DNA of 64,000 nt from Tachypleus tridentatus (Eukaryota), in contig NC_134837.1 of assembly GCF_004210375.1 (NCBI RefSeq), forward strand, positions 230,505,567 to 230,569,566. Reading direction: 5' to 3'. Of this stretch, positions 1 through 64,000 are shown in pieces. A program made the position numbers and the translations under genes. The notes beneath the pieces were generated by a model, which ran no database searches, was not told the origin of the DNA, and saw nothing but the letters and a program-made list of their open reading frames with translations. Position 1 is the stretch's first letter. Every line of letters starts with the position of its first letter.

Positions 1-654
1 ATGTTCTGAGATACAAACCTCATATTGCATCTGCTGTCGACTAAAAATTGGTTGTTTTAAGTAAAAATGTAGTAGAAAGTTTTATTTTTCTCCATGAGAG
101 AATTGCAATAAACATAAGATACAAATGGTCTTCTGTCCGAATCTGAATTAGGTCTCTATAAGTTTTTAGAGTAAATAACCTTCATATCATGAACAGAGAC
201 CAAGAAGATAACTTTAATAACCAGTTTTTGCCAAATGATGTTTACTAGATTACCACTTACTAACTTCTGAATGTAATAAAATACCATTGCAAGTGATTGG
301 CAAGTTGTGTACTTCGTTCTTAAACTGAACATTAAAAGCTTTTAGCTAAAGGGTTTATCTATTTTTAAGACGTAGGAATATTTATTTGTGAATACTTTCT
401 GTAGGTAGTACACACTGATCAAAATATTAAATACCCCTAGTAACATGCTAAACTGTTTCTCACTTCGTGTTCATAAAAAGTAAGTATTACACTCAAGAAA
501 AATAAATCTACCATAGGTTTAGAAATACACGTGGTGAACTGCTTGAGCATTATTTTTTGTTATAATGGAAAATGAAAGATACATATCAAGATTTGACTGA
601 AATATTATTGTTGGGATCAGGTTGCACTGTGCAATACTTAATTATGAGGATGAT

Positions 655-924
655 TGTTTGTTTTTTAAATTTAGCGCAAAGCTACTCAAGGGCAATATGC
701 GCTAGCCATCCCTAATTTAGCAGTGTAAGACTATAGGGAAGACAGCTAGTCATCACCACCCACCGCTAACTCTTGGACTATTCTTTATCAACGAATAGTG
801 GGTTTGATCATATTATAATGCTTCCATGGCTGAAGGGGCGAGCATGTTTGGTGCGAGGGGTTTTGAACCCTCGGCCCTCAGATTTTGAGTCGAACGTCTT
901 AACCCACCTGGTCATACCGAGCCT
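655..924 (-). mobile_element. SINE family 1: a ~270-bp tRNA-derived SINE whose tRNA-like head lies at the high-coordinate end of this copy.
   Basis: …ttagcgcaaagctactcaagggcaatatgcgctagcc… … ggttttgaaccctcggccctcagattttgagtcgaacgtcttaacccacctggtcataccgagcc. Confidence 0.85.
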
Positions 925-2180
925 TTATGAGGATGATTAAGTTAACTAGCAAATAAAAATATCACTGTCACAAGTCAAAATATAAGAAACTTTGTGTAAT
1001 AAGGGAAAGTGTATTCAGAAAAAAAGGAGACCTACTGAATAAGGATAGGAAGCAAATAATGATGACCTTTTGAACTAACAGACATTCTATTGTGTATGAA
1101 AAACTTGATAGTAAATTAAACCGTTCTTTTCCACCGCAGAAAATGAATAAAATATAATTTCGTAAGCAGTTGTCTTTATATAATCTATTCAGTTCTCCAA
1201 ACTATTGAAGTAATCATCTTCCGTATTGTCCAGAACACTTGGATTAAACTTATACCCAATGGAACTGCGTAATATGGTCAGACGGATAAAGCATCATGTT
1301 TTTCTTCAATAATGAAAGGGTTAAAGTATGGTGACAATCCAGTGAAGTCATGGACTTATTTTTCATATTCTACACTGTACAAGGTTCTTTATGCAGTGTA
1401 GTATTTACATGACATGGTATAAGTCCCCTTCTTTCTTTGAATGGTCATATTTCCGGTTATAAACATTCGATCACCATAGCTAACCAGATACACCCAACCA
1501 TACTTTTCTAACCAAACACAGATGGTTATTTCCAGAATGAGAAAGCCACCAGCTATAGAGTTAAAATCGGGTTTTGTATGCAGACTTCTAACAGCTATTC
1601 TGGTCTGTACAGATCCTTTATCTCAATCATACTGAGAAAATTTTGTATAATGATCTATAACAGGGGTGGCCAAACTTGCTTAACGTATGAGCCGCATACG
1701 ATAAACTTCAGATGTTTGAGAGCCACAAGACATAAACAAATATTACACACACGTTTTTATTGTCACATGTACATACTAATATTTATTCGTGTATGTAGTT
1801 TTTAAACTGTTAATATGTATTAGTTTCAATAATCACAAAGTACACATATATATACCAAATGTTTTTAAAATCCTGACTGATTATTGTTTTAACTATATCG
1901 AGCGTATTTAATACGGTAATGAACTACGGAAACATCTAAAATAAATATGCAAATTTTCATCTCATCAAGTGAGACTGATAAAAATAAAGGGGTTAAAAAC
2001 AGATATTTTTAATGATATTTATTTGTCTTAGTAAATATCTGGCCAAAATACGGAGGGAAACATGTAAAACAATAAAATTAAATGTATTTTAATCAGATAC
2101 CGCCTTACAGAAATTTTAGTCTTATCATAATATTTTTATAATACAAACAGACACTAATACAATTATTAGACTATTTACTA

Positions 2181-4038
2181 CTAGTAGAGGTCTTGTGAGT
2201 TTCCATCTTGGTTGTGAGTCGTTGAAATTTCAGCTGATATGTTGTCATGGCTGGATAAATTAACTTCGTCAGGCGTTGTTTGGTAAGGACTGCACGATGC
2301 TTCGAATTCAAACTTCATTACAGAGTACAGTGATTCACAGCGATATGTTGTGCTGAAAACTGAGATGAGTCGCACACTGGTTTTCTTCAATTCGGGATAT
2401 TTTATTTCTGAAACTTGCTTCCAGAACTCAGTTGTAGAATGGGATTTATGGATCATCTTTAGACCCAGGTCCTCCTATAGTTCTATTGATTCCATTTCCC
2501 CGGCTGATGATTCTGTAACCAGAGATTCAAGAATTGGACAACCATTATTGATCACATCAACCAGGAACGGATTTACAAGAAAGACGAAGCAGGTCTTCAT
2601 CTTCTGCAAGTCCTCAAACCTGGATAGGAACTTATCAAGCAGTTCTTGTAATTTATCTTTGTATTCTTCCAGTTTGTGGTCTTTTATTTCAATACCAGGG
2701 AATGTATTCACTCTCCTTTTGAGATTGGGAAAGTAACTGAAGTTTCTTGACAATATGTCTCTTTGAAAAAGTCTTATTTTATTCTGAAAGCTGAAACTTG
2801 TTGGAGTAAAATCGGAAGCAATCTTATCCTTCCCCTGGAGTGCGAAGTTGAGAGTTTGTAGATGATTCATTATATCAGTAAGGAACATTAGATCTTGCAT
2901 CCATTCATCATTTCCCAGTTGAGGATAGAATATTTTCTTTTCTTCAAGAAAAGTAATAATAGGCTTCAACAGATCCACAGACCTATTTAAGACATTGCTG
3001 GTAAACAGCCACCTCACAATGCAGTAGAAAGAGACATCACTTGGTTTATCTTCAAGCTCCAGTTCTTTAAAAAATTTTTGAACTATTAATGGGTTTTCCC
3101 ACTCTGCATATGAAATTGATAATTTCAAGAATAAATTTAATAACATCTTCATACTTGAAGTATTTGACTGCCAGGTGTTCACGATGAAAAATGCAATGAA
3201 TAGGGAGAAACTGCGGAAAGCTGGGCTCAGTTTTCATAAGTGCAATTAATCCCGCATTTTCCCCATTGTTACAGATGCTCCATTTGTTGCAACACTGACG
3301 AGTTTATCCAGTAGAATATCAGCATTTGTTAAGGCTCTGTCAAGCACATTTTTAATGTTAACACCATGAGTTGTTTTTTTCAGTGCCACTCAGTCCAACA
3401 TCCATTCTTTCACAGTTATATCGGAGAAAACATAACGAACAATTACCACCAGTTGTAGATTGTCTTGTATGTCTGTAAATTTGTCAAGGGCTAAGCTGAA
3501 TGCAAGAGAATTATTTAAATCATTTTGCCTACAACATCAGACTGATCTTGGAGATACGTCTTTTTGTAGTGTGGCGTGAAGCTGGTGTTTGTACTATTAG
3601 CCGCTGAAGTGTTGTGTGTTATTTGGATCTAACATTGCAACAACTTCAGCAATATTCTTCTTAACAAATTCACCATCAGGATACTGGCTTTTAGCACGAA
3701 CAATATTCCATGATATAACAAAACTAGCTTCAGTTGTTGTATCAACTTCCTCACTGAATCTTGTCAAGAGTGTCCGTTGGCTATTTAGTGATGTATTTTA
3801 ACACAATTAACTTGTTTTTCCGTAATTCTTATTTAGGTGGATAATCAGACTAAAAGTTTATGTGACTTGTTTCATAGTGGCGTTTCAAGTTACTAGCTTT
3901 GTAATGACCGAGTAACACATTGCAGATAAGACACAAAGGTTTACCTTCTCTAACGGTGAATACAAAATCTTCCTCCCACTCTGGCTTGAAATTTCTGTTT
4001 TCATCTTCATACGTTTGCTCTTTACAATTTGATGACAT
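2181..4038 (-). pseudogene. hAT-superfamily (Buster/Charlie-like, ZBED5/GTF2IRD2-like) transposase pseudogene. It keeps the N-terminal zinc finger, a DDE/RNase-H-like core with stops, and the C-terminal hAT dimerisation region.
   Basis: ORF 3850..4038 minus: FKPEWEEDFVF…PLCLICNVLL…KASNLKRHYETSH. The core 3182..3850 carries in-frame stops and shows ALDKFTD, QLVVIVRYV and GVNIKNVLD. ORF 2475..3182: …LFQRDILSRNFSYFPNLK. ORF 2181..2456: C-terminal tail. Confidence 0.7.
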
Positions 4039-21020: not shown

Positions 21021-21026
21021 TTTATT
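21021..21026 (-). promoter_or_regulatory. Polyadenylation signal AATAAA overlapping the TAA stop of the terminal exon.
   Basis: Minus-strand sequence …GAA AAG TAA ATAAAAATGAGC. Confidence 0.5.
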
Positions 21027-21028
21027 TA

Positions 21029-22084
21029 CTTTTCATTCTGTACGTTGAGACGTCTTCCAAATATGTAAGCTTTATGAGGCCGTGCAGACAATGCACCATT
21101 ATCTTGAGTAGCATGTTGGGAGAATTGATCCAAGTTCCGCACAGGTGACACTGCTACCGAAGGTGAACGGTATTGGCTTGTGGCTAGAGGTGGCACTGCT
21201 ATCGAAGGTGAACGGTATTGGTTTGTAGCTGGAGGTTGTGCTGCTACCGAAGGCGAACGGTATTCGCTTGTAGCTGGAGGTGGTGCTGCTTCCGAAGGTG
21301 AACGGTATTGGTTTGTAGCTGGAGGTGGTGCTGCTACCGAAGGCGAACGGTATTCGCTTGTAGCTGGAGGTGGTGCTGCTTCCGAAGGTGAACGGTATTG
21401 GTTTGTAGCTGGAGGTGGTGCTGCTACCGAAGGCGAACGGTATTCGCTTGTAGCTGGAGGTGGTGCTGCTTCCGAAGGTGAACGGTATTGGTTTGTAGCT
21501 AGAGGTGGCGCTGCTGCCGAAGGTGAACGGTATTGGTTTGTAGCTAGAGGTGGCGCTGCTGCCGAAGGTGAACGATATTGTTTTGTAGCTGGAGGTGGTG
21601 CCGCTACCGAAGGTGAACGGTATTGGCTTGTGGCTGGAGGTGGCGCTGCTACCGAAGGTGAACGGTACTGGCTTGTGACTGGAGGTGGCGCTGCTACCGA
21701 AGGTAAACGGTATTGACTTGTAGCTTGAGGTGTCGCTGCTTCCGAAGGTGAACGGTATTGGCTTGTAGCTGGCGGTGGCGCTGCTTCCGAAGGTGAACGG
21801 TATTGGCTTGTGACTGGAGGTGGCGCTGCTACCGAAAGTGAACGATGTTTGCTAGTGGTTGAGGATGGTTTGAAACGGGCAGGATTAGGTTCGACTTTCA
21901 ATTTTTTCTCATCTCTGGGATCCGGAAACGTATATAGATCATTATTTCTTTTAAAATAATTTTCAGAATTGCCACAGTTTACATTGTACCACCACTCACA
22001 GACGAAGGACAACTGGTTATAGACAGTACCATTTGGACAAAGAAAGCTTTGCATACGACCTTGAGGACTACAATGATGATACAA
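21029..22084 (-). CDS. Terminal coding exon: the C-terminal half of the CBM14 domain (LYHHCSPQGRMQSFLCPNGTVYNQLSFVCEWWYNVNC), then about 16 15-aa tandem repeats YRSPS[EV]AAPPPAT[SN]Q, then a short unique tail and stop.
   Basis: The minus ORF 21026..22084 is preceded by the acceptor gtatatttttag|TTG TAT CAT CAT TGT. It is in phase 0, matching the phase-0 donor at 32474. Joining the exons yields C-x14-C-x5-C-x10-C-x12-C-x7-C with conserved aromatics, which is the peritrophin-A spacing. Confidence 0.65.
21149..21847 (-). repeat. Coding tandem repeat with a 45-bp unit (15 aa), about 16 copies, and a 90-bp higher-order structure. Several 90-bp blocks are identical at the nucleotide level.
   Basis: Direct reading: ggtggtgctgctaccgaaggcgaacggtattcgcttgtagctgga… repeated. 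The protein alternates the …SEAAPPPATSE and …SVAAPPPATNQ units. Confidence 0.9.
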
Positions 22085-23037
22085 CTAAAAATATACAACC
22101 GTTTATTGATATTTTGTATAGGCTGAATTATTTAAGTCACAAGCATAAATAAAACAAAGTACGTGATTTAAAAATATATATGTAAAAACGACTCTACAAG
22201 TAGGTTTTCTCGACATCACTGAAAAGTATATGATTTAAATGGGAATTTTATAAACAAAATTACTTATTCTGCAAAATATAGGTTATGTATTGGAGTATGT
22301 TAATTGAAAGGTTATTTTGCTAAGCATCTGTGACAGGTTCAAGCATGATAAAAAAATGTTATTTAAAGTCCAAGACTTATATTGTATGGTGAACGATGTC
22401 AAATACAAAGTGACTTCTTCCTTAATATATCTGTAATTTAATTAAAACTCGTAAGCAGACATATCTGTCCATATCTTTAACAGCAAAGATTCACATTCCA
22501 CTCTGGACATATATGTTCTAGTCATAATATCACAATTCTCAAACATAAAGACTATAAAAGTACCATGATAACGTCACAAAATAAACTTAGTATCTTTAAT
22601 GTGTTCAATGAATTAGCCTAATTGCCATTTCTTGTAACACTACAGATACTCCGTCAACAACTTGAAAATGATAAATCTCCCAAAGAATGCACCCAATTCC
22701 ATGATAATGGAACTCTGAGCCTTCTATGCCAATATACCACATTACTTCGAATTTAAGATGCTTTCTTATTTAGGATGCACCCCACTTTTAAGAAGGGATT
22801 TTTCAGAAAAAAAAAGGATGATCATTAGAAAGGAGTAAATACGTTTTATAAGAGTTTATTAACGAATAAAAAATGTTAATAATGTAATTAAAATGAAATA
22901 TAATAAAATATACAGGAATTTTAAAGTTTTCATTAAAATAATGTTTCTTTAATCAGAATGTTACTTCGATGTTTCTTTTGACCCACTGCAATATTCTGAG
23001 GTTGAAACATCTTCATCACTTGATTTATTACTGTCTC

Positions 23038-23160
23038 AGACCTCCGCTAGTACAGCGGTATGTCTACGAATTTACAACGCTAAAATCATGGGTTCGATTC
23101 CCCTCGGTGGGCTTAGCAGGTAGTCCGATGTGGCTTTGGTATAAGAAAAAAAACACACAC
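23038..23160 (+). mobile_element. SINE family 2a copy, lying inside the gene's intron.
   Basis: cctccgctagtacagcggtatgtctacgaatttacaacgctaaaatcatgggttcgattcccctcggtgggcttagcaggtagtccgatgtggctttgg. Confidence 0.8.
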
Positions 23161-24977
23161 ATTACTGTCCTAAAGAATGTAATTTTGTGTTCCATCTTCA
23201 AATCTGACGGAAAATTTTCACTACTTGTTGTCCTTCCCTGTAATGATAACCTTTTATTTTCATAAATTTCTCACACCAGTCACGATAAACCTTGAAAGAA
23301 AGACTAATATTTCCTGCACATTCTTTCACTTTTAATATTAATACTTCTCTCATTACAGGCAAGCCTTTATTTCATAACTCTCTAAAAGACGGTAAAAAGG
23401 TAGCCTCAATTTCAGTTTTTTTTTCTCATCTTGGGCCAGAAAATGGCTTTGTACTTTTCTTGCAAGAAAACAAGTTAGTTTTCATACCACACCAACGACG
23501 TATCTTTGCCTCATACACTTTTTACTTTTTACCGGCTGCACGATTTCCAATGTGTTCGACGTACAAAATAACTTTTCTTTTAAATTTAGCATCGTACGTA
23601 AAACGCTCTTCATGGGTAAAAAACTCAATAAAAAAAGCATCTGAACAACAGGAAAGTCAGAAAAAGACTGAGGACAGTGATATACAACTACGTCGCTAGA
23701 GGCGCTGATATCGGCAAATTAGACATTTTGTACGTGTTTTTTTAGCCTTTTTAATCTAAGTTATTTTTAAAATATAGTTCAATCTGTTTGTTAGTGCAGG
23801 AATTTTTCGAAAATCTTTGTTGTTCGAGAAAAATGATGTTTTCCAGACTTTCGAAGAGTGAAAAATAATACTTCGAATTTAAGACGCACCCTAATTTTGA
23901 ATTCGGAAAAAATGTGAAAAAAAAGGTGACTCTTAAATTTGAAGTAATACGGTAATTACAACATAAATATACATTGTATCAATAACAAGAAGACTTAACG
24001 GGTCATCTCTATCACCAGTACTCAATATTTTTATATGGAGCGTTTCGAAGATTATGCCTTCAAACAGTCGCGACTCAGGAAGCGATTCATATATATTGAC
24101 TGTATATTTGCAATACAGCTACACTTCACAGTCAGGATTTAGGAATTTAGGAAGATTCTGAACAAGTGATATCCAGGAATACAATTCACATTATGAAAAG
24201 TAAAATATTATGATCACTAAAACACGTTACTCGTATACCATAAGAGTGTGCATAAAACATGTATCAGCGGATAAATACCTCACTTGAACGTGGAACAAGC
24301 ATAGTAGTGTGAAGGGGAGCATCACAGACTTCCTATTCATTAGAATGAATAATATTTGTTTGACAGAAGACGATCAGAAGAATGAGGAAAAACACATTGT
24401 TACAGCTCTCTTTGAAAAAAGATACCTTGAAATTTAGGTAAATGAAGAAAAGAAAAATAAGAATCATAAACAGAAGGAAAATTACACTGAAAATTTTATA
24501 AGAGTATGCAAATAACATAAAGTCGGAACAGTAATGAGAAACCACAAAACAAAACAATCGCAATTAGTATATTGAAACCACTGAAATACCCGAAATAAAG
24601 ACAAAACAACATTTTCAGCCTCCTTTATGAAAGTGGGCTCTAGTAAATGGGAGAAACAAAAGGCAGGATCAGAAAAAATAATAATTATTGGAATACCACT
24701 CTAATAGTGGTACCTACCAATGGACACAGCCTTTATAGTGAAAAAAAATATGAAAATGGTTGGGTATGAACTAAACACAAGAAAACTAATGATAAAAGGA
24801 GTTTTCTACATTCACTTGACCGATAACACGCCAAAGGAACGCAATAAAAAATATAACAAACGATTCAAATAGTTAATTCCATGTTCTAATGGACGAAGAG
24901 CTTAGGCAAATGGGTAGCAAAACTTTAATTATAACTAGCCGCAGTTTAAGTTCTGACTAATAACACCACATATAATA

Positions 24978-27329
24978 CAGTGGTACCTCGGTTCTCGAAC
25001 GACTTTCTTCTCGAACAATTCGGTTTTCGAACATATTGTTTGAGAAAAAAAATGTCTCGGTTGTCGAACATAAACTCGGTTCTCGAACCAAGTGTCGTGG
25101 CCCGAAACCCCGAAATAACCCGACTGATGACCCGAACGACCCTTCGACCATTTTTGGCCCGCACCAAGCTTGCCCAAAACATTTTATCCGCACCTGTCGC
25201 TCAGTCCACACCCCTGCTAAAATCTGATGTGAACGTTCTCGTTTTTCTTTTTTTCTTCTAAATATTCTGATTAAATAAGCAACCATGGGGTAAAAGAAAT
25301 ATAATGAAATCAGCAAACCAAAAAGAAAAGTAGTTAGAGCCACAATAGAGGTGAAAAAAGATCTCACAGCCAAGTATGAGAGTGGTGTTCGCGTGTCTGA
25401 CCTTGCTAAACAGTTTGGTATGACGAAGTCCACACCATACTGAAAAATAAAAAGGTCATCAAAGGAGTTGATGTTGCAAAAGGAGTGACAGTGCTTAAGA
25501 AACAAAGATCACAAACAATGGAAGAGGTAGAAAAACTGTTGTTGATTTGGGTAAACGAAAAACAGTTAGCTGGTGATAGCATTTCTTAGACCATCATTTG
25601 TGAGAAAGCAAAGCAGTTGCATGCTGACCTACTAAAAACACCCCTGGAATAAGTGCTGATACAAGTGATGCCTTTAAGGCTAGTAGGGGGCTGGTTTGAA
25701 AAATTTCGGAAGAGAAATGGCATACATAGTGTGGTGAGACATGGGGAGGGTGCCAGTTCTAACAAAGACGCTGCTGATAAATTTGTTAGGGAATTTAAGG
25801 ACTATCTAGAAGCTGAGGGTTTTATTCCCCAACAAGTGTCAACTGTGATGAGACAGGCCTCTTTTGGAAGAAAATGCCAAAGAGGACCTACATCACGAAG
25901 GAGAAGTCACTGCTAGAACACAAGCCAATGAGGACAGGCTAACTCTATTGTATGTAGTAATGCAAGTAGAGACTTAAAACTTAAGCCTTTGTTTGTGTAC
26001 CATTCTGAGAACCCGAGGATTTTAAGAAAATAGTCTCCGGAAAAGTAAACTAAATGTCATGTGGAGGGCTAATAGTAAAGCATGGGTAACCAAACAATTT
26101 TTTCTGGAGTAAGTCCATGAAGTGTTTGCTCCAAGTGTAAAGAATTACGTCACGGAAAAACAGTTGCCACTCAAGTCCCTTCTTGTGATGGACAATGCAC
26201 CTCCTCACCCACCAGACTTGGAGGACGGGTTGGTGGAGGAGTACAGTTTCATTACAGTGAAGCTCTTGCCCCCTAACACGACTCCCTCATTCAGCCCATG
26301 GAGCAGGTCATATCGAACTTTAAGAAACTCTACACCAAAGTACTGTTTCAAAGGTGCTTTGAAGTGATCTCTGACACAGAGTTAACACTTACAGAGTTCT
26401 GGAAAAAATCACTTTAATATCCTCCATTGCTTGAGGATCATATAAAAAGCCTAGAGGGAAGTGTCTTTGATGACCATGAACTCAGCCTGGAAAAATTGTG
26501 GCCAGACTCAGTAGCAGGTAGAGACTTTGAAGGCTTGAATGTAAGTGGTGATGATGTGGAGGAGTTGGTAAAAGACCACAACACTGAGCTCACCACGGAA
26601 GAACTCCAAGATTATCAGAAGGAGCAGCAACAGAAGGCAACTGAGGAAGTGTCTTCAGAGGAGGAGGAGGGAAGGGAGGATGTTCCTAGTTCACTAATCA
26701 AGGAAATGTGTGGAAAATGGGGAGAGTTACAAAGTTTTGTGGAAAAATTTCACCCTGACAAAGCTGTAGCAAACCGCAGCATAAACCTTTTCAGTGACAA
26801 TGCCATGTCTTACTTCAGAAACATTTTAAAATGTAGGCAGAAACAAACCTCATTAGACAAGGTTTTAGTGAGAAATAGTTCTAGTGAGTCTCAAGCAGGT
26901 TGTAGTGGTGCAAAGAAACATAAAAGAGAAAGAACCCCAAAAGGAGAGTTATTTGACGTTTTAATGGAAGGTGACTCCTCTTCCAAACAATAATAACCTT
27001 CCTACTCTCCACGTTCCTCACCACCTTTCACTTACGCCATCAGCTCTCCTCAGCACAGGTAAAGTGTAGTTAAATTTTCATATTATTGTTTTTTTTAATT
27101 GTGTTTATAGTTTTTGTTGTTGACTTTATGCATGTAAGTATTATTATACAGGTATAAATAAGCAATATTTTTACCTAAAATGCTTCATAATGCGTAATTT
27201 TTGGAGGTCTGTAACACATTAATTTAATTTACAGTATTTCTTATGGGAAAAATTGATTCGGTTTTCGAACAAATCGGTTTTTTAACAGCCTTTTGGAATT
27301 GATTAAGTTCGAGAACCGAGGTACCACTG
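24978..27329 (+). mobile_element. Tigger/pogo-family DNA transposon with TIRs, TA duplications and internal subterminal direct repeats of the form cggttctcgaac / cggttttcgaac.
   Basis: CAGTGGTACCTCGGTTCTCGAAC at 24978. Its reverse complement ends at 27329. TA lies at 24976-77 and 27330-31. Confidence 0.85.
25270..26993 (+). pseudogene. Tigger/pogo transposase, frameshifted. It has a CENP-B-type N-terminal HTH, GWFEKFRKRNGIHSVVRHGE (HTH_Tnp_Tc5), the DDE-region motif LVMDNAPPHP…LPPNTT, and an acidic C-terminal tail.
   Basis: ORFs 25653..25916, 26122..26367 and 26427..26993 lie in different frames. The motifs match tigger-derived proteins. Confidence 0.8.
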
Positions 27330-27949
27330 TACTTCTTAAACATTTCCCTGAAGATAACATCAACCTGGCAGTTGTAACTTAGACTATAAATTAATTATCA
27401 TCTAGTGAAAAGTTAACTAATTATTAATTAAGTTACTAAGAGTTAAGTCTACTAAACACGACAACGACAAATCTACTTAATTCTTATAATATATATTAGA
27501 CATTACAGAATATCAAATACAAAGTATACAGAGGCTGAATACGTTATTTGAAATGACTTTGGAGCCTCACCACATTATTAAATTAAATATCACTAACTCC
27601 CCATCTTGGCAATAGATATACAGCATAGTTTCTATTGCAAAGTGGTCCGTCATAAGGTTTTCATTCAAAGCACACACCTCTTTCCAACCTGCTGATTTCA
27701 ATAATGTAGCTAGTATACGATGTAACAGATTTACTTTATACATTTATTTTAGTGCATAGACTTGTTTCATTATAGTTTTTAGTTTGCATGTGATGTATAT
27801 TCTTGACTGGGTATTGTGCAAGTACAACCTATTATCGAAATTTGTAAAACATTCACGTGCGTAAGAATCAACAATATACTAGATGCATATATAATAATAG
27901 AGATTGACAGTTTTGTCACGAGCTTTGGTAAATATTCTGGAGTCTCGCG

Positions 27950-28258
27950 TGATTGATGTATAAAAACCGACCAGTCGAGAGAAAGAGTGTTATTGTTGGA
28001 AAGCTACAATCAGTATGTGCTATAAGCCTAGGAAGCTAGAATTGTGATCAACGTTTATTGATCGGAAAACCACAAAATTTGACCAGAGACATTACAACTT
28101 TCAAACATAAGAAACAGTTCAACTTCAGTGAATTACTTTGGACCTTATTATTTCCATAAGGACCTCAAATATTTTTGCTGGAATGAGTCATCTGGTATAC
28201 AGTGTGAAGCCAGCCAAGAAAAAGACACCATTAACTTACGCGAGTCATAACAGTATTA
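27950..28258 (+). repeat. ~300-bp sequence that recurs at 31235..31500 at roughly 75% identity, flanking the gag-pro-int fragment. It may be an LTR or leader remnant.
   Basis: The two copies align by eye (ataaaaaccgac.agtcgag … gtgaagccagccaagaaa…). Confidence 0.5.
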
Positions 28259-28528
28259 GTTTGTTTTGAATTTCGCGCAAAGCTACACGAGGGTTATCTA
28301 TGCTAGCCATTCCCTAATTTAGCAGTGTAAGACTGGAGAGAAGGCAGCTGGTCATCACCGCCCACAGCCTGCTCTTGAGCTACTCTTTTATCAACGAAGA
28401 GGGGATTGATCGTTACATTATAATGCTCCTAGCTGAAAAAGCGAGCATGTTTGGTGTGACGGGATTCGAACCTGCGACACTCACATTACGAGTCGAGTGC
28501 CTTAACCACCTGGCCATGCCGGGCCACG
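28259..28528 (-). mobile_element. SINE family 1 copy with an 11-bp target-site duplication TAACAGTATTA.
   Basis: The duplication lies at 28248..28258 and 28529..28539. The copy is inserted just after the ~300-bp LTR-like repeat. Confidence 0.9.
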
Positions 28529-28949
28529 TAACAGTATTAACTCAGAATTAATTTGCTCGTCATGGATGTGGACCATCGATAAAATATTCAGTTTTAAGCC
28601 GAATATAAAACTTAGTATAGTTTGTAACTTTGTAAAACCCTTGTATATAAACCATCATTTGTAATATTTATTAGTAATAATAGTTATTATAATTTGTATT
28701 GTTTTTTACTGTGTATTCAAATATATTTCTGTTAAAAAGAAAATTGTATCAATCTTGTTGGCAAATAACATAAATTTAACTAACTACGAAATTCAAATTA
28801 AAATTTCCAGTTATATGGAATAGTAATACCTAATTATGTAACATAATAGATCGGAGATTTGTTCGAAATAAATTATAATACGTAACATAATAAATTGGGG
28901 GGTCGTGTCAGAAATATGAACCAGAGATAAAATTTGTTCTAAATTAAAA

Positions 28950-31190
28950 TTCAAATCTTAATACGATTTATATTAATCAGTGCCGACAAGACTTGATCAT
29001 GTCCGATTGTCAAAGTCTTATTGCACCATTCTCCCTTGAACAACTAGAAAAATATAACAGAAATAAATTGCTTGAAATTGCCAAAATTTTAGAATTAGAT
29101 GTTAAAAATCAATGAGAAAAACAAACTAAAAAGTATATTGTTGAAATATTATCGACGATGATTTGTTGTCTGAGGAAGCATTAGGAGAATATTCTAGCCG
29201 ACCAAAGTTGAGTGATGAAGATATGTTAGAAATCCAATTAAAACTCAAACAAATCGGGCTTGAACAAGCCTGCATCGAAGCCCAGAAAGAGAAAGTCCGT
29301 AAACGTCTAGAGGCAGAACAAGCCCATATCGGGGCCGAGAAAAAACAAGCTCTATTGAAGCAAAAACGGAAATTAGGCTGAAAGAAATGGAAATTAGACT
29401 CATCTCTGATCGATCAAGACAAAATGACAACTTTTAATTCAGTCGATATATTAAAGTATCACCCTTTAATCAAAATGAAATTGATAAATATTTCTAGCAT
29501 TTTGAAAAAGTTGACAAAATCGTGGAATGGCCCACCGAAAAATGGTCATTATTATCACAGAGTATTTTGACTGGTAAAGCAGTAGAAGCTTATGCTGCTC
29601 TGGCTTTAGAAGATAGTATAGATTATGATAGGATTAAATCAGCTATACTCGAAGCATATGAATTAGTACCAGAGGCTTATCGCCAAACGTTTTGAGGTTA
29701 TTACAAGCAAGATAGTCAAACGTATATGGAATTCGCCTACGAGAAAGAGGTTTGTTTGATTTATAGTGTAATTATAAGCATATTGGTAACAGTTTTGACA
29801 AACTAAGACAATTTAGACAAATTATACCTAATTGAGAAATTCAAACACTGTACAAGTGATTACCTCAAAACTTATTTGAATAAAAGAAAGCTGAAACACT
29901 ACAGGAAGCAGCTTCTGTTCCTAATAATTACACCTTAACACAGAAGACCACTTTTCATTAAAAAAAATTCTTGTCATCTTATCACAAACCAATATATGTC
30001 CGATCCACTAAAGTTGAGGATTCTTCTAAAAATCTATGGTTCGAAATTCTCAGACAGTCATTATACTTCATCAAAACCATCAAAGCCTGTTTGTTATTTT
30101 TGTAAAAATCCTGGTCATGTTATGCCCGATTGTTGGAGTTTAAAAAGAAAAAAGAAAAGGATGCAACACTTACTGCGTTTGTGTCCGCATACGGACGTAG
30201 TTTCACTAGATCACATGATATCGTTTATTTGGCCACTGCTAAAAAGGGTGATGCAGCTAGAGAGGAATTTATACCTTTTATGTCTGTTGGTTCCGTGTCT
30301 TTGACAAAAGCCACTGCTAACTCCATACTTATACGTATTTTACGTGATACTGGAGTATTCCAATCATTGTTGTTAGAAGGTGTATTATCTTTAAACTTGA
30401 GCTTTGTTACTGGTGAGTCTATTATTATTCAGAGTATTGAGGGTGGTTTTATTAATGTCCCTCTTCATTACTTTTGTTTCATGCCAGACCTAGTTTTGGG
30501 ACTAGTTGTGGTTGGAGTAAGACCTACCCTACAGTTCAGGGTGTATCATTATTGTTGGGAAACGATTTAGATCGGGGAAAAGTTGTTGCCGAACCCAAAA
30601 TGGGTAGCGAGCTGATCACTGTTTCATCTAAGGATAACGTTGTTGTTCAGGAGAATCCAAAAGTGTTATTAATAAATTAAGCTGAAAACAAACGATAGAG
30701 ACGTGTTCAGAAAATAACATTATCGATTTAATCACAGACATTTTTTGGGTCTGACTTGGATTTTCTGGATGATTATTCTACTGAAAATTCTTTAATGAGG
30801 TGCAATAATAGACGTGATGGATCTGATTCGTCTGTTCAAGTTCCCTTTGCTAAAAGCATACTGATCCACGAGCAAGAAAAGGATCTGCAGATCTCTTCCT
30901 TATTTAACTGTGCACTTCCAAAAGATAATACGGATAAAGTTCCTAATGGTTATTTTTGCAAAGATAATGAGCTCATGAGAAAATGGAGCCCACCAAATGT
31001 ACAAGTTCCAGAGGAAGGGGCAATTTAGTGTTTTAAAACCATATAATTCGGAAATATTGAAAGTTGCCAATAAACTTCATATTGGAGCTCATTTAGGAGT
31101 CAATAAGATGTGTGAAAAAATTATGGGACATTTCATTTAGCCCAAAAATTAACTAAAGTGTTTCTTCCTTTTGTGCAATTTGTCATATAT
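28950..31190 (+). mobile_element. Internal fragment of an LTR retrotransposon. It holds a gag capsid-like region, a CCHC zinc knuckle, an aspartic protease (DTG) and the N-terminal HHCC part of integrase. Reverse transcriptase and RNase H are absent, and there are several frameshifts.
   Basis: Capsid-like region WPTEKW…LVPEAYRQTF at 29527..29694. Zinc knuckle CYFCKNPGHVMPDC at 30089..30130. Protease motif ILRDTGVFQSLL with DTG at 30346..30354. Integrase N-terminus ILKVANKLHIGAHLGVNKMCEKIMGHF at 31055..31140. Confidence 0.65.
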
Positions 31191-31234
31191 ATTAATTGGC
31201 TGGAAAACTTAACCAGAAAATTTCTGCTACCATA

Positions 31235-31500
31235 AAAACCGACTAGCCGAGCTTACTATTGAACAACTACAATCATTGTGCTATAGACTTAGGAAGGTAT
31301 AATTGTGATTAACGTTTATTAATAGGAAAACTACATAATTTAATCAGGAAAGTTATAGATTTCGAACATTACAAATCGTTAAACTTCAGTGAAATACTTC
31401 GGGCATTAGAGTTTGTACGAGAACAGTAAATATCTTTGCCGTAAGGAATCAGCGTTCACCCGGTGTGAGGCCAGCCAAGAAAGTGACAAATTCCATTTAT
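31235..31500 (+). repeat. Second copy of the ~300-bp direct repeat, the partner of 27950..28258.
   Basis: See the partner entry. Homology ends near 31500. Confidence 0.5.
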
Positions 31501-32473
31501 GGAAACACGTGGTTATGTTACCACCGGTAAATCATTTTTATAAGACGCAACTAATTCTCTATATAGATAAAACCCTGGAATATATATTGATTACAAAGTT
31601 AATCACTGTACACAGACTATATTATAGGTTGGAATATGTCAAACATGAATTTACTTATTTTTCTCTTGATTTTAATACATATTATAGTAAGCGAAACAGA
31701 AGTACATTTACTTTATAAGATGGGTATTGTACGCCGAATTATGTCAGCATAAAGATAAAGATTCTTATTTTACAGAGTAGGCTATGTAAACAAAGCGCTA
31801 CTTAATGTAGAATGTTGTATATCAAAAACTTATTTTACGCATTCTGTATCGCAAAAGTGTTGAAGCATTACTACTGATCTTTAACTTACACTGCACAACA
31901 AAGTTTTTGCTTCTTGAACACTGTTGGGTGTTCCTTATAGATTTTTGGCTGCTGATCACAAAAATCACATCCAAATTTGCCCATCACGTACCGTTTCATC
32001 TAAATCTTGGTTTCACCAGGACATTGCTACAATGGAAAAACGATATCAGGGCAACTGGAATCCATCAATGCTTTTTGACAACTGTTGGACACTGCAACGT
32101 GATGCACCGGACATTGAATACAAACGAAAATCAGGAGCAAAACACTTTTAATTATATTGAACTTAATAGCGTATTAGAAACATAAACGCAATTAAATACG
32201 TTATTGCCGGTAAACAGTTAACTGTCTATTTCTCAGAGTTTCTATGTGATGAAGCAAAACCAAAACTATATTTGTACACACCCACCAGGTACCTGTCACA
32301 ATCAGCAAAAACTTTTCAGGAAACAAAACTTTTCAAAAAAATGGTTGTGCAGTGTCTTTTATATTTATAAACTGTATTATAATTTTTGTTAAAAAATACT
32401 TACCCAACCAAAATAATCGTTCTTTATCATATTCCGCGTATTTTTCAATAATAGCTGATAAAGACACGTTACC

Positions 32474-33747
32474 TGACATCTGTGTTCCACACTGGCGTAG
32501 AATCCAGGCAATTTATCCTCACAAGTAAAGGAAGTTCGTGGGATATTCGAAATAGTAGGGTAGTCGCTTCCAGCCTTCCCGGGGATGGCACTCAGGTCGC
32601 CTTCTATATCAATAATAAGCTGATCATCAAAGTCTTTATCCCTATTTGATTTAGTTTCTTGTATTTGACGTTGTTGTTGACCGTAACTTCGTGGAAGCTC
32701 TGAGACTTTGTATCTTACAGTTGGTATAGAGACTGGTTTTTGTTCTTTAGGATTTTTCCTGTAAAATGTATTTTGTAAAGATGTGTGTTGAACAAATGAT
32801 TCTTGGCTTTCATCTTTGTATTTCTGGACAGATGGTCGCTGTGGTGTTACTTGCTGGAACTTAGGAGTTGATTGAGGGTTAGCCTTTTTAAGCTGGGGAG
32901 TGGTTTTCTTTAAAACTGATTCAGGACTGTTAAGAATCACTCCATGCTGCTGATGTGAGCCTTTGGCTATTGGTATCAATAATTTATTACTTTTAATGGA
33001 ATGTTGAGTTGAGAAATATGACTGCTGATTTCTTTTAAAATAACTTTCCCGTGTAGGCTGTAGCAGTGTGATTTGCCTTGTTGGAATGTCAGCGTTTATC
33101 CTTTTTTCGTCATTTAAAGAATGTTGAGCAAAAACATGTATAGGACGTCCTAGCTGTGATATGGGTTTTCTGCTGAATCTGTCATTCTCTACTGACTTTA
33201 CTTGTGGAATCGGTTGTAAAGAACTAGTTTCTTCTTCATTGTTTTCTTTGTCATCTTCGTTAGTGAGAGAGTATTGTTCAAAGAAACGAAGAGGGCGCTT
33301 TTGCTGTGTGGAATTTTGTCGAAGGCTGTCATCTTCTACAGTCTGCACTGGAGGAGTTTCTTGGTTTGGTCCACCCACTGACTCTACAAAGAGTGGTATG
33401 TGTGAGATCTGTACTTGAGGTGTGGTAGATTGCTTGGCAGTGAAAGGTATTTGTAACTGTTTTGGTGGTTGAAATGTTAGTTCAGAGTCAGGTTGATGGA
33501 AAGGTTCAGGTGATTGAGTTGGCGAACCATTAACATCTGTATTTGGTTGCTGTACAAATATAAACTGTTTCTCTTCTTGGATCTTTTCTTTGGTCTCCTT
33601 CACAGATCCGTTATCTACTACTCCACTGACTGGTCCTCGACTGAATCTGATGACGACATTAGCAGGTCGTAAGAATTTTGCTCTCGGGTCATTTGGGTCA
33701 AGATCAGGAGGTTGATACCTGTAACTGAGATCCAGAGGCTTGTAGGG
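32474..33747 (-). CDS. Internal coding exon of a peritrophin/mucin-like gene. It is a long Q/P/S/T-rich low-complexity region ending in the N-terminal half of a chitin-binding peritrophin-A (CBM14) domain (…SFTCEDKLPGFYASVEHRCQ). The exon ends at a GTAACG donor.
   Basis: The 455-aa minus ORF 32389..33756 supplies the reading frame. The minus-strand sequence ...CAC AGA TGT CAG|gtaacgtg gives a canonical 5' splice donor directly after Cys-Gln. The upstream boundary is either the ATG at 33756 or the acceptor tctgtttatgtttcag|CCC at 33748. There is no signal peptide, so a 5' exon is missing. Confidence 0.6.
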
Positions 33748-36700
33748 CTGAAACATAAACAGAATGTGAAAACAGAGTCAAAACGAGACAGAGTGATTTA
33801 TATACAGTAGTTTGAATTAATGTATCATGTGCTATGTGTGTTTACTTTACATCAGTAACTAAATATTTCTAATTACAGTAAGGAATTGTTACCACCAGAG
33901 AACAATATACTTAAATTTAAACTGACAAGATACAGAAAATTCTGACATATTCTAAAAGTATGTACTAAAACTTAATGATTTAAATAATGATATAACGTTG
34001 CTGTTTTGGTTTGGTTTGTGATCTTAAAACTCTTTACTTTGACATCAACTTACTTGAATTATCTCAACAACAGTATCGTATTGTAGCACAGAAAAAATGT
34101 CGAATCAAGTTTTCTGAATGTTACAAGTTAACAAATTATCTACCTAGATTTATCATTTAGTATTAAAATAATATTATTATCCACTTTTCTTCTTTACTTC
34201 TTTACAGGTGAAATGAGTAAATGTATTTTTGCATATTTTTAATATTTTATGTGTCGTTCGTTAAAAATATCGTAGAGAAAAGACATTGTCAAACACAGTC
34301 ATACAATACTTGTAATCCGCGATTCGAATCTCGTAACTTTTGCAAGTGAAGTAATAAATTTTTCCTATCATATATTTATGTTAGATATTTGATCAAAGCT
34401 GTACAAAAGCTGTGCTAGCCGTCCAAGATTTTAAACAAATAGCCTCGAGGGACGCAAGCTAGCGCGTAGCACCCACCCCAACTCTTTGGTTGTTCGTAAC
34501 TGAATTAATCGTTCATTAAGACATTTTTTAAACTATTCCGACCGTCCAAAGTATTCACATTAATTCTGGTTTAATATAAATGTAAAATTTAAAAAAATAA
34601 ACGACAATGCTTGAAACCAACTGCTAAAACTACAGAATATTTACATATATGTGAGTATACTTACTAAGATATCCTGTCCCTTGATTAAGCCTAATCCTAT
34701 GATTCCTAAAAAAGAAAGCAATGGTAATGTTTGAGAATTAAACATCTCATATGTTTAGAATATCAAAACCATGTTAGAACTTTAAGATATCCATTTATAA
34801 CTTCTGTAGTATTTGTATGTTTTGTATAATATGAATACAGGAGACAAAATGAATTTTATTATGGAGTAGGTCATCTGGGTTGGACATGAGATGGATTTTA
34901 TAACGAGAACTTTGAAAGTGCATCAGATATAACCTTTTTTTATGTAGAGTTCCACCATGTTCAAATGTCAAATGGTAAGAACAAAGCTATTTATTAATCG
35001 CGAGTATACGGTTTCTTAAGCATATGCTTTTTAGCGAAGAGTTAAATTAATATATAATTTTTGCGTTCAAGAAAACAAATCTTACTTTGAATTTACCCTT
35101 GTTAACTGCTGAATAAAAACAGCTTGGTTACGGCTTTTTAACGCTAAACAAATTAAAACTTCGTCCGTAGCAAATGCCACAAAAACTTTGATTAAATCTG
35201 TAGCACTCATTAAAACTTCTAATCTGAGATTATAACATTTGACAAAACAATAAAAAAATATCAATATGTTTATGTGTTTACATATATATAAAAGTTTTGA
35301 TATTAAAGTACGAAAGAAAAGTAATCGTGAATATTTAAATCAGAATTTTCAGCATAAACAGCACCTTATTCACACAGACTAAACGGAAAGATAAGAAACA
35401 CCTGAATTTTAGGCATTAAAGTCCCTAATTTTTAGCTACTTACCAGAGCAAAGGCAGCCAGTTTGCAGAAGTTACAATCACAAGTGTTCTTTCTGTGTGG
35501 CTTTTTGAACCAAATAACAAGACTGATGCTACTTGTTAGCAATTGAAATCTTGAGACCTCTTCAATGGCATTGCATCTCGAACGTTAGGCACTTCGATAC
35601 GTAGCTCAGTACATTAACTACTATACTATGTCCATTTCCAGTAGTCGTGGATTTTACGTACATGAAGTATAAGATTAAGGAAATGATATCTAAACTTACA
35701 AGAACCCGCAACCAATGTAATAACTATTAGAATTCAAAATTATGATAAAAAGACGATGTTTCTGTTATTATTTCTATGCACTGAAACTATTTTTCACCCA
35801 ATCACACGCTTCATTATTATAATTGAATAAATATATTTATTATTATAAATATAACATGCGAGACAAAAATTGGGTTTCTCTATGCATCAAAGATGTAGGC
35901 AATGTTCCGCACTTCAGGGTTGTTGGATAACAAAAGGCCAATAGTTTGTGAGGATTTCTGCTGATTAACTTTATTCCTTCTAGAATATTACTTTAAAATT
36001 AGGGAAGACCAGCGTAGATGAATGATCCTCTCGCCAATAACCAAAAAATGAAAAAAAAAACATTACTGTCAAGTTGAAGATTTTAAGAAAGAGAGTTTAA
36101 AAGCACACTTTTCTTATTTTTACAAAAAATAATATTACCACAATGTTTGCGAAATAAATTTCCTCAAGAAAAGTTAGCAAGGTTAAAATAACAATTAAAA
36201 GTTATTTTAGAGTAAATATACAAACCAAGAAGAGCACAAAATGCAGTTCTCATGTTTCTCCGTTTGTGTGTCCTCCAACTAGGTTCTGTCTGTAAAATAG
36301 GATAAAAGGGTATGTCAAGTACATATTCAGGTAGGTCCACCCAATTCTTGCGCACAACCTTGATCTAAAGTTGATTTAAACAGAACTCATTGACCGACCG
36401 TTTCGGTCATTTGCCCATGACGTTGTTATCACTATATATTGTTCTTATTTCCCATTTTGACATTCACCTACATGCAATATCAGTCTAACGTAATTTATGT
36501 TTGTAGGTTATAGTAGAGGCGTTTTCAGACGAGTACTAGAAAATATCTTAATTTGGTGATGAAGACTTTATCTGGGTTGTTATGTAAACAAGTAAACTCT
36601 GTTAATCATAGCTATTCGATTAAGTCAGTCACAAACATTTCTCTCTAGCTGTATCTATTATAGGTCACTGGTATTTGTTCTAGAAAATATGGAGACAAAC

Positions 36701-56559: not shown

Positions 56560-56790
56560 TTGATCGTAATTCTAGAAACAGAAGGTTTGATGGTAATTCT
56601 AGAAACAGCAGGTTTGATGGCAATTCTAGAAACAGCAGGTTTGATGGTAATTCAAGAAACAGCAGGTTTGATGGTAATTCTAGAAACAACATGTTTGATC
56701 GTAATTTTAGAAACAGCAGGTTTGATCGTAATTCTAGAAACAGCAGGTTTGATCGTAATTCTAGAAACAACAGGTTTGATCGTGTTCTGT
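56560..56790. repeat. Minisatellite with a 27-bp unit (taattctagaaacagcaggtttgatgg), about 8.5 copies.
   Basis: Read directly from the sequence. The ORFs on both strands here are repeat artefacts. Confidence 0.9.
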
Positions 56791-58249
56791 AGTTAGTCCT
56801 AACTCCATTTTTTTTAGATAAAGTTCAGCTTGTAAGTGTCATTATGTATTTGTGAACGTAACTCGGGGTTTGTAGACGTTATTTAATATTTGAATAAGTC
56901 AGGAAGTATTTGTGGCCGTTATTTAATATCTGTGGTCATCGTACGGTGTTATTAAACAACCCTAGGTGTTTTAAATCGTCTTTTGCATTCTATTCCTTCA
57001 CACGATATTTCGAAACTGAGAAATAAACTGAAATTAATATAACTTAAGACAAAGTAAAAGAGTTAAAGAAAACAAAACATATACAACAGTAAAACGAACA
57101 AAACAGAAAAAGAATAACAAAAACTGGTTATCAAACAAGTAGAATGTATTTAAGACTAATTTAGAAAACAGGTAAGACAAGCTTACGAGACAAGATAAAA
57201 ATAAAAACAGTTTAAAGAAGAAAAAGACGTAGTCAAACGAAGTTTCTAGTTTTAGGAAAATAAGAGCTTGTTTTTAAGATATTCGCAAAGCATCATACTT
57301 TGAACGTTTCGAGCTTTCCTTAAGCATCTTAGTGAAATAACAACTACTGTTTATTAGAAACATAAATTCAAGTAAAGAATTGTTTTTAAGATAACTTTAG
57401 TATTTTGCTAAACTAGGTCAATAACGACTTGGAGTATTTTTAACTTTGTAATTTAGATATTGCAACTGATATTAATTGTAGCTTTTAAGTGCCGCACACT
57501 CGTTTTATAATATACAAATAGAATATCTGAAATGCAATTATTTGCGTTCAAAAGAAGTATTCACGTGCCTCGTGAACACCAAAACAAAACACAAAAACGT
57601 TCAGTATCTAAGCGGTATTTAGTACAGAGTACGTTGTGATATCAATTAACAGCCTTAGAGACATAACTTATAAAATGTCAGTTTTTCTTGATATCCATTA
57701 GTAGCCTTTGAGACAGAACTTGTAAAATTATGCTTGCTGAAAAACTAGAATACCGTATAATCAATTAGAATAGTCTGTGGCCAATTAATAGCCAAGATTT
57801 ACTTCAGTGAGATCAGTGGCCGGTTATTAATTAAAATTCAAACTCCATTTGTTGTCAGTGTCCAGTTGTTAGCTCAGTGTCAGACTCCAGCTAAGCACAT
57901 TCACCAGTTTGTTATGGCGTTGTAACTTTGTACTCATTACATACTTTGTTTGTCAGGTTTGTTATTATTATTTTCTTAATTGCTATCACAAAATTGGTAT
58001 AAATAGAATGAACAACAAAACCGAAAGACAAAATGCAGGTATTGTTATAAAAGCAACATTCGAGATTTAATGTTGTTACACACATATAAATATTTGAGTA
58101 GATGAAAAAACTTCTTTAAAAGCTGCAGCATAATAGTGCTAAGTAATTTAACTACTCAATCAAGGAGATCAGTGATGGCCAACCAATAGAAATCTCCCTG
58201 TAACTTAAAAGAAATAAGTTAGCAGCATAAGTGGATCGCGAGTGTTCGT

Positions 58250-58860
58250 TATATCTGTAAATGATAATAACAGGTGATAATACAAGTGATAACAACAGAC
58301 AAAGTGATATCTGTAACTGGTAACTGCAGGCCAACTGATATTTGTAACTGGTAGCAGCAGGCTAAATGATATCTACAAGTGATAACAACAGACAAAGTGA
58401 TATCTGTAACTGGTAACTGCAGGCCAACTGATATTTGTAATTGGTAGCAGCAGGCTAAATGATATCTACAAGTGATAACAACAGACAAAGTGATATCTGT
58501 AACTGGTAACTGCAGGCCAACTGATATTTGTAACTGGTAGCAGCAGGCTAAATGATATCTACAAGTGATAACAACAGACAAAGTGATATCTGTAACTGGT
58601 AACTGCAGGCCAACTGATATTTGTAACTGGTAGCAGCAGGCTAAATGATATCTACAAGTGATAACAACAGACAAAGTGATATTTGTAACTGGTAACTGCA
58701 GGCCAACTGATATTTGTAACTGGTAACTGCAGGCCAACTGATATTTGTAACTGGTAGCAGTAGGCCAACTGACATCTGTAACTGGTAGCAACAGGTCAAC
58801 TGATATTTACAAGTGATAACAACAGGCCAACTGATATATGTAAATACAGGTGTACTGTTG
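58250..58860. repeat. Minisatellite with a 93-bp unit built from three diverged 31-bp subunits, about 6 copies.
   Basis: gtgataacaacagacaaagtgatatctgtaactggtaactgcaggccaactgatatttgtaactggtagcagcaggctaaatgatatctacaa repeats. Confidence 0.9.
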
Positions 58861-61800: not shown

Positions 61801-63768
61801 GGAATTATTAGGTTCTCTGTCAGGCATCAGTTGAATACCACACTTCCACATTATCCAGTAAGAAAAGTACTGGCAGCTCAAATATCGCCCTTTAAATGTT
61901 ATTCCTTAAGTTATTTGAATGAATTTAGTGCAAAAATATGTGTAATGCAAAATGAAAACAATATTTATTTATTCACAGAGATTTTTAAAACACAGTGTGT
62001 GTACTTGCTTTCTGCTTACTGGCTGGTTACTTTTTATTGGACTCTTGAATCTGTCAAGTTGCTTTCTTTACTCATGATGTCTTTCCACCAATCAATTATC
62101 TTAAGAACCTTCGTAACGAACAAATCTAGCATTTTTATTTAACTGGAAATGATGGAATAATCCACGTGACTTCATTATCATTCAATACAGGAGAGAACAT
62201 AACTTTTAAATATTATCTAGTCTATCATTAAATAATACCGTATACATCTAGAATTTACGAAGAAATCAAACATTCTATTTTAAAACAAGAAAATAAAAAA
62301 TCATAGTATGTTTACAAACGACATATTTTCTCTACTTTTTGTTTTAGGCTTGTTCTCAAGCCAACATTTAAGTTTTACTTTAAAACCAGCAAATACATAT
62401 CACATGGATGATACAACCATTGAACAAAGAATTAAAACTCAAATCATTTAACTATGGATAGGTTAAAGTGTGCATTTCGAGATCGTTTAAAGAATGATAT
62501 TAAACATTTATTTAAAATGCTTTATTATTAATGTATATAAATTAACTTAGTATCAAAACGTAGCTAATAAATCACATTCTAATGTTATATATTTTAAGTT
62601 CTAACTTTATAAGAAAATATTTGAGTAAATCTAAAATTTCTCTTAATATGAAAATTGTGACATGACATTTATTCTCCAGATCTTCTTTAATTTATTTATC
62701 ACTCTTCTTACAAATTTTATAGCATTCAGTCTTTTTGTTCATGGAGTCATAAACTAGAAAAGCAGAGCCATTTTCAATGCCAAATCGCCAAATCTTCTCT
62801 TTTACAGGTTGGTAATGCTTCTCTCTGATGCTTTGTATTATATAATTGATATTCAACAGAAAGGCAAAACATTACTCTATCAAATAATGTATAATGATAT
62901 TTTGTGTTTAATACAGAGTATTATCAATTTTATCTTGAGCTTGAAGATTGATTCTTATGGTGTTCAGACTGAGCAGCTAAGGGAATCATTTTAAGACTCT
63001 CTTGTCTTAGAAAGCCAGTTAGTTTATACAGAATTATAAAATATTGTTTGATTTGTGCGTTATTATTTTGGGCTCTTAGGCTCATTATTTAAGAACATAA
63101 AAAAACAATGTACTAGTACCATCATATCAAAATGTAGGTTTACATTTCATCAGAAACTGAGAGCAAACAAAAGCTAGATTTTGTAAAATAATATATATAA
63201 TAAAAACTATTATTAACTGGCTGTGTTTGTTCCCGAGCAGCTCGTGCATTGCGTCATTCAATACTGTCATGTAAGATAAACATTTGCTGAGAGGTTTAAA
63301 ACTTGTGTGTTGTGAGAATTAGTTAGACATGGTCCAAAGGACAATAAACCAGTAAAATTAGGAGTCTTAAGTTATTTAAGATAAACAGCTTTCGTTTTGT
63401 CACGACCTGTAGTCATTCTGGAAAACAGGATAATTTAGGCTTTTTTAGTATTTTAATGGTGGTTAATAGGTCGATCAGATCGACCAAATTCAAGTAGAGT
63501 TAGACTAGAGAAAATAGCATATAAGGTTCCAATGACAAAAATTGTTTGCTATTTATTTTGCAGGTTTTAGAAATTAAGCAGATGAAATCTAAAGATTTTC
63601 AATTGTAGAAAGGTATTTTTCATTTTAACATGAAAATCACTTTGCACTAGGTGCAGTCAGTATTCTGACTTGATATCTTCGTAGGCAAATGTTTAGTAAA
63701 AATATTTAATTTAAAACAACGTACTTCTTTCAGTGGAGAAGAGTTGTAATGTAATGAAGATATGTGTG

Positions 63769-64000
63769 TAACTTTAACATTCTGTTTATAGTTCTAGTAT
63801 GTATAACCTTAACATTCTGTTTATAGTTCTAGTATGTATAACCTTAACATTCTGTTTATAGTTCTAGTATGTATAACTTTAACATTCTGTTTATAGTTCT
63901 AGTATGTATAACCTTAACATTCTGTTTATAGTTCTAGTATGTATAACCTTAACATTCTGTTTATAGTTCTAGTATGTATAACCTTAACATTCTGTTTATA
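63769..64000. repeat. Minisatellite with a 35-bp unit (gtataaccttaacattctgtttatagttctagtat), at least 6.5 copies, running off the window end.
   Basis: Read directly from the sequence. Confidence 0.9.

Follow-up and report, generated by a model that had tools for sequence, protein, structure and literature searches.

Do two open reading frames (ORFs) that lie 10.4 kilobases (kb) apart on the same strand belong to two genes, or are they two pieces of one? The question is raised by a 64,000-nucleotide stretch of nuclear DNA of the tri-spine horseshoe crab, Tachypleus tridentatus (contig NC_134837.1, positions 230,505,567 to 230,569,566; G+C 33%), which we refer to as the window, and by two minus-strand ORFs within it, of 455 and 352 amino acids. 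An initial annotation of the window had proposed that these are not independent genes, and that splicing them together rebuilds a six-cysteine chitin-binding domain of the CBM14 (peritrophin-A, or ChtBD2) family. We conclude, with a probability of about 0.93, that the two ORFs are exons of a single ordinary minus-strand gene with four coding exons, LOC143239437, coding for a putatively secreted and presumably chitin-binding structural protein whose domain is cut by the 10.4-kb intron. The gene, the splice and the domain are already known, in that the RefSeq pipeline model has exactly this junction.

Gene model and splice junctions

The larger ORF (33756..32389) holds the peptide ...SFTCEDKLPGFYASVEHRCQ, directly after which comes the donor GTAACG, and the smaller ORF (22084..21026) starts with LYHHCSPQGRMQSFLCPNGTVYNQLSFVCEWWYNVNC and has gtatatttttag directly before it. 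The donor, the polypyrimidine-AG acceptor and phase 0 at both junctions, as originally described, can all be read directly from the sequence; the lengths of the two exons (Table 1, exons 3 and 4) are both multiples of three, which places the junction in phase 0. The acceptor cannot sit further upstream, because its AG belongs to an in-frame TAG. The larger ORF is itself entered through an acceptor (gtttcag/CCC) at 33747, in line with the exon start given in the initial annotation. Two details of the initial annotation need adjustment. It had the 455-amino-acid ORF ending at the donor; GTAACG does follow the peptide directly, but another 27 codons of the ORF come before its stop at 32389. The donor exon had also been given an end at 32474, and the correct end is 32473.

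When the joined sequence was searched against known proteins, it matched RefSeq XP_076336609.1 ("uncharacterized protein LOC143239437" [Tachypleus tridentatus]; UniRef100_UPI003FD50F6C), for which PF01607 is precomputed; apart from this domain, the record gives no functional name. This protein has 23 N-terminal residues beyond the two-ORF join (MRTAFCALLGIIGLGLIKGQDIL), and we mapped these onto two small exons further upstream (36253..36226 and 34705..34665), so that the two-exon join first proposed is exact at its junction but describes only part of a gene with four coding exons. Exon 1 codes for MRTAFCALL and the first base of a Gly codon, an exact match to residues 1-10, and exon 2 codes for (G)IIGLGLIKGQDIL, the remainder of a hydrophobic, signal-peptide-like N-terminus and an exact match to residues 11-23. 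Together the two small exons comprise 28 + 41 = 69 nucleotides (nt), or 23 codons, and the frame closes. The four exons sum to 28 + 41 + 1275 + 1059 = 2403 nt, corresponding to 800 codons and a stop, and over all 800 amino acids the product matches XP_076336609.1 with 100% identity. At the 3' end an AATAAA hexamer, read directly from the sequence, overlaps the TAA stop and is a plausible polyadenylation signal.

The CBM14 domain

Intron 3 splits the domain between Cys2-Gln and Leu (CQ/LYHHC, the slash marking the splice junction here and below). Exon 3 contributes the first third of the domain, including Cys1, Cys2 and the Gln, preceded by a low-complexity region rich in Q, P and S, and exon 4 contributes the last two thirds (Cys3 to Cys6), a linker, a series of 15-residue tandem repeats and the C-terminus. 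The match to Pfam CBM_14 (PF01607; gathering cut-off 22.1 bits) that had been predicted for the spliced protein was obtained: the 777-residue product of the two-ORF join scores 41 bits (E 2e-10) over the whole profile (positions 1-53 of 53), with one CBM_14 stretch and nothing else significant, and the excised domain scores 45.9 bits (E 6e-12). The further proposition that neither half is recognisable alone is correct for the upstream ORF, which gives no CBM_14 match, but not for the downstream ORF, which reaches 27.8 bits over profile positions 18-53 of 53 and is thus above the cut-off.

These results bear on how much an ORF-by-ORF search would miss. Bacterial-style ORF lists break up eukaryotic genes, and a small domain with an intron in it can escape such a search; in LOC143239437 only the 5' third of the domain was hidden. 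The expectation that the domain would be missed therefore applies to that third, whereas the 3' half is found and the gene is present in the standard annotation. The intron described here is of the ordinary spliceosomal kind and interrupts a small domain in a gene that had been annotated before; the importance of the case extends little beyond correct annotation.

The cysteines of the joined peptide are spaced C-x14-C-x5-C-x10-C-x12-C-x7-C, reproducing the pattern initially reported. This spacing agrees with the CBM14 consensus CX11-30CX5-6CX9-24CX12-17CX6-12C (Tetreau 2015, in the form quoted in PMC7379184), and is slightly outside a narrower 1999 consensus at two positions (x15-17 and x9). 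In an alignment with 20 homologous domains, taken from chelicerates, myriapods, crustaceans, insects and a tardigrade, the joined sequence shows no gap across the junction; Cys2, the Gln that follows it and Cys3 are invariant, and the C-x5-C spacing between Cys2 and Cys3 is present in all 21 of the aligned domains.

We also modelled the joined 97-residue segment with AlphaFold2, which gave a mean predicted local distance difference test score of 88.8. In a Foldseek comparison with the PDB, every one of the top matches is a CBM14 module (4z4a, 5hbf and 6so0; probability 0.92-1.00), and the predicted domain superposes on 5hbf with a root-mean-square deviation of 1.5 Å over 48 columns; weak sequence-level matches in the PDB are likewise CBM14 modules, from chitinases. 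The structural matches correspond to human chitotriosidase CHIT1 (5hbf, 6so0) and fungal Avr4 (4z4a), and although the predicted fold superposes on them, identity is about 27% and the settings differ, those modules being attached to a GH18 catalytic domain or acting as free effectors, whereas the horseshoe-crab module forms part of a long structural protein. By profile, cysteine spacing and predicted fold, the joined segment belongs to the CBM14 family.

Further CBM14-coding exons were sought in the window by tblastn with 31 homologous domains, and strong scores are confined to the two known exon ends. Within intron 3, a weak likeness to the middle of CBM14 at 25261..25371 on the minus strand (FLLPHGCLFNQ compared with FLCPNGTLFNQ) does not have the pattern of cysteines and runs into a stop, and we attribute it to chance.

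Homologues and the position of the intron

All 33 non-self database matches cover only 6-16% of the query and are centred on the CBM14 domain. The arthropod homologues have in common the motif xPGxxGxDYP...CQV(F/W)HxC...SFLCPNGTxFxQ...CDWWYNVxC, examples being Cordylochernes LAZ67_1002978, an Ixodes scapularis protein named "protein piccolo" and the dipteran thawb (thw) proteins, and identities are 43-62% over the aligned domain segments (the core and the motif before Cys1). No similarity was detectable beyond the domain, and none of the database matches has the SPSxAAPPPATSQYR repeats of exon 4. Among the homologues, the automatically given names "protein piccolo", "Titin", "mucin-3A-like" and "basic salivary proline-rich protein 1-like" mislead, because they derive from low-complexity regions and the only common feature is a single CBM14 domain.

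We then asked where introns fall in the homologous genes, by mapping the proteins to their own genomic loci in six species; for the fly and beetle homologues, Eurosta thw and one from Diabrotica, the look-up yielded no locus. A phase-0 intron after Cys2-Gln is present in the tick Ixodes scapularis (2.25 kb, CAG/GTAAGT), the pseudoscorpion Cordylochernes scorpioides (0.63 kb, CAG/GTAAAC) and the millipede Chamberlinius hualienensis (about 67 nt). The domain is unsplit in the crustacean Daphnia sinensis and the tardigrade Paramacrobiotus metropolitanus, and in the butterfly Bicyclus anynana it is split elsewhere, within PG/YY; the homologues in these species without the shared intron may be paralogues. 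That horseshoe crab, tick, pseudoscorpion and millipede homologues share the intron position is of minor interest in itself. A Logan contig with adapter-like sequence at its start encodes a relative of the millipede protein (71% identical) in one uninterrupted ORF; we read this contig as transcript-derived, in which case it would show the same join at the mRNA level in a relative.

The Paramacrobiotus metropolitanus locus (1..3953) contains three adjacent genes, each with a CBM_14 match, an arrangement suggestive of chitin-binding genes of one domain each, clustered in tandem; the horseshoe-crab window holds one such gene.

Alternative readings of the junction

An alternative explanation for the two ORFs is that they are independent units, or that one of them is a pseudogene fragment, and that reconstitution of the domain is coincidental. 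The intron is long and carries apparent transposon debris, which counts in favour of this explanation. Nonetheless, the downstream ORF lacks an ATG, and directly before it stands the in-frame TAG containing the acceptor AG, and reading through from the upstream ORF cuts the domain off after Cys2; because of these features we reject the interpretation that the ORFs are independent genes. Moreover, the two exons are undamaged, agree in phase and are flanked by GT and AG, the join yields a full-length Pfam match, the intron occupies the same position in three other arthropods, and the RefSeq model has this join. A coincidental domain is thus extremely improbable, and the initial proposition that the ORFs are not independent stands, given the RefSeq join, the complete Pfam match and the intact, in-phase exons.

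Some observations nonetheless weigh against joining the two ORFs as exons of LOC143239437 in this way. The junction in Tachypleus is drawn from homology and from a computational RefSeq (XP_) model; in search of transcript evidence we compared the exact protein with other contigs, and it forms a singleton cluster, present only on the 276-Mb chromosome record, with no recorded gene position in an exact-sequence look-up. The Foldseek E-values are modest (0.01-0.06), which is because the domain is small. There is also a second in-frame, phase-0 donor candidate, TGG/GTAAGT at 32403 (32398..32406, minus strand), 69 nt downstream of CAG/GTAACG, and this is closer to the GTAAGT consensus than the annotated GTAACG and could serve some transcripts.

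Use of the donor at 32403 would generate a second isoform in which 23 residues (VTCLYQLLLKNTRNMIKNDYFGW) are inserted between Cys2 and Cys3, disabling the fold. Its phase and its better agreement with the consensus are in accord with this possibility, but the upstream donor is the one used in the sole database protein, the five-residue spacing that the insertion would disrupt is kept in every aligned domain, and we found no evidence that the extension is coding. We consider such an isoform improbable, and slightly more doubtful still the idea that the donor is active in some tissues, where it might provide a splicing switch between a chitin-anchored and a free matrix protein.

Protein architecture and possible function

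With splicing at the annotated donor of LOC143239437, the protein begins with the hydrophobic, signal-like segment (residues 1-23), followed by a low-complexity region (residues 24-431; Q 11%, P 10%, S 10%, K 8%), the CBM14 domain (residues 432-485) and, at residues 545-754, about fifteen 15-residue units of the form SPSxAAPPPATSQYR. The domain holds six cysteines, and the sole cysteine elsewhere is at residue 6, in the signal-like N-terminal segment. The order initially described, a disordered Q/P/S-rich region followed by CBM14 and then by P/A/S/Y repeats, agrees with this composition and with the repeat analysis. A 178-amino-acid ORF on the plus strand (21180..21716; repeating GGGAATEGERYW) is an antisense shadow of the 45-base-pair (bp) repeat in exon 4 and is not a gene.

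These features are consistent with a protein that would act in an extracellular matrix of chitin. Ordinary GT-AG splicing restores the CBM14 domain in the mRNA, and the protein would be secreted by means of its signal-peptide-like N-terminus. Established knowledge of CBM14 modules suggests that it would bind chitin fibres through the disulfide-locked domain, while the extended low-complexity and repeat regions may serve as matrix or spacer material, with cross-linking possible via Tyr, Gln and Lys.

In which matrix might such a protein be found? The CPAP1 proteins of Tribolium castaneum have a single ChtBD2 domain and no further domain that can be identified, vary in length, and are conserved only within the domain; their definition also requires expression in cuticle-forming tissues and not in the midgut (PMC3504105). 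The horseshoe-crab protein resembles them in its single ChtBD2, the lack of any other domain, its long, variable low-complexity regions and its domain-only conservation, a likeness of architecture and not an assignment to one of the named insect CPAP1 proteins (A-J). Its architecture fits that of a CPAP1-type cuticle protein, although sequence by itself does not decide between cuticle and peritrophic matrix. The 2012 survey of CPAP proteins lists no chelicerate orthologue of any CPAP1 (PMC3504105, Table 1). Our search gave clear homologues with a single ChtBD2 from horseshoe crab, tick, mite and pseudoscorpion, and chelicerates clearly carry CPAP1-like single-ChtBD2 proteins that are absent from that survey.

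The same gene and splice could instead produce a protein of the gut peritrophic matrix or an invertebrate intestinal mucin. CBM14 is, after all, the peritrophin-A domain, one homologue has been automatically named "mucin-3A-like", and the repeats, with their high content of P, A, S and T (19, 16, 15 and 6%), could bear O-glycans. This composition is not that of a classic Thr-rich mucin. Against this, in Tribolium the proteins that have a single ChtBD2 only, and in which conservation is restricted to the domain, are the cuticle-expressed CPAP1 class (PMC3504105). The database matches also share flanking motifs, xPGxxGxDYPxxxxIPxTSF before Cys1 and CDWWYNV before Cys6, and one of them is an orthologue of Drosophila thawb, a gene found in a nociceptor-specific RNA interference screen for thermal nociception, in a passage that draws no link to the gut (PMC13104144). 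We regard a gut product as unlikely, although we note that these arguments do not settle the site of expression in the horseshoe crab.

Other features of the window

The coordinates of the gene and of other features are listed in Table 1.

Table 1. Positions of LOC143239437 and other features, numbered from the first nucleotide of the window; slashes mark splice junctions.
Feature	Position	Strand	Details
Coding exon 1	36226..36253	-	ATG at 36253; 28 nt; donor G/GTTTGT, phase 1
Coding exon 2	34665..34705	-	41 nt; acceptor ttttttag/GA; donor TTA/GTAAGT
Coding exon 3	32473..33747	-	1275 nt; acceptor gtttcag/CCC; donor CAG/GTAACG; residues 24-448 of XP_076336609.1
Intron 3	22085..32472	-	10,388 bp; phase 0; GT at 32472-32471, AG at 22086-22085
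Coding exon 4	21026..22084	-	1059 nt including TAA stop at 21028..21026
Coding tandem repeat	21143..21844	-	45 bp x 15.6 copies; 89% matches; no indels; Tandem Repeats Finder score 1054; within exon 4
AATAAA hexamer	21021..21026	-	Overlaps TAA stop; plausible polyadenylation signal
Three consecutive ORFs in different frames	25653..26993	+	Weak DDE_1 match at 26122..26367, 19.1 bits (cut-off 22); probable decayed DNA transposon
ORFs with gag-like CCHC zinc knuckle (CYFCKNPGHVMPDC) and RDTG aspartic-protease-like motif	29996..31028	+	zf-CCHC match at 29996..30304, 19.9 bits (cut-off 20.8); probable decayed retroelement
Tandem array	56560..56783		27 bp x 8.3; non-coding-looking
Tandem array	58281..58843		93 bp x 6; 31-bp sub-period; non-coding-looking
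Tandem array	63765..64000		35 bp x 6.7; continues past window end; non-coding-looking

Two groups of plus-strand ORFs lie within intron 3. The first is probably a decayed DNA transposon, DDE_1 being a transposase of the pogo/Tigger type, and the second is probably a decayed retroelement; the DDE_1 and zf-CCHC matches are both under their Pfam cut-offs, and we treat them as hints of transposon debris and not as findings. Considered together with the short introns of the millipede (67 nt) and pseudoscorpion (0.63 kb), they suggest that transposon insertions may have partly enlarged an ancestrally short intron.

Scans of the whole window with Rfam and for tRNA genes gave no match. Three tandem arrays with a non-coding appearance are located towards the end of the window, and a 180-amino-acid minus-strand ORF (58249..58791) is a product of the second of these.

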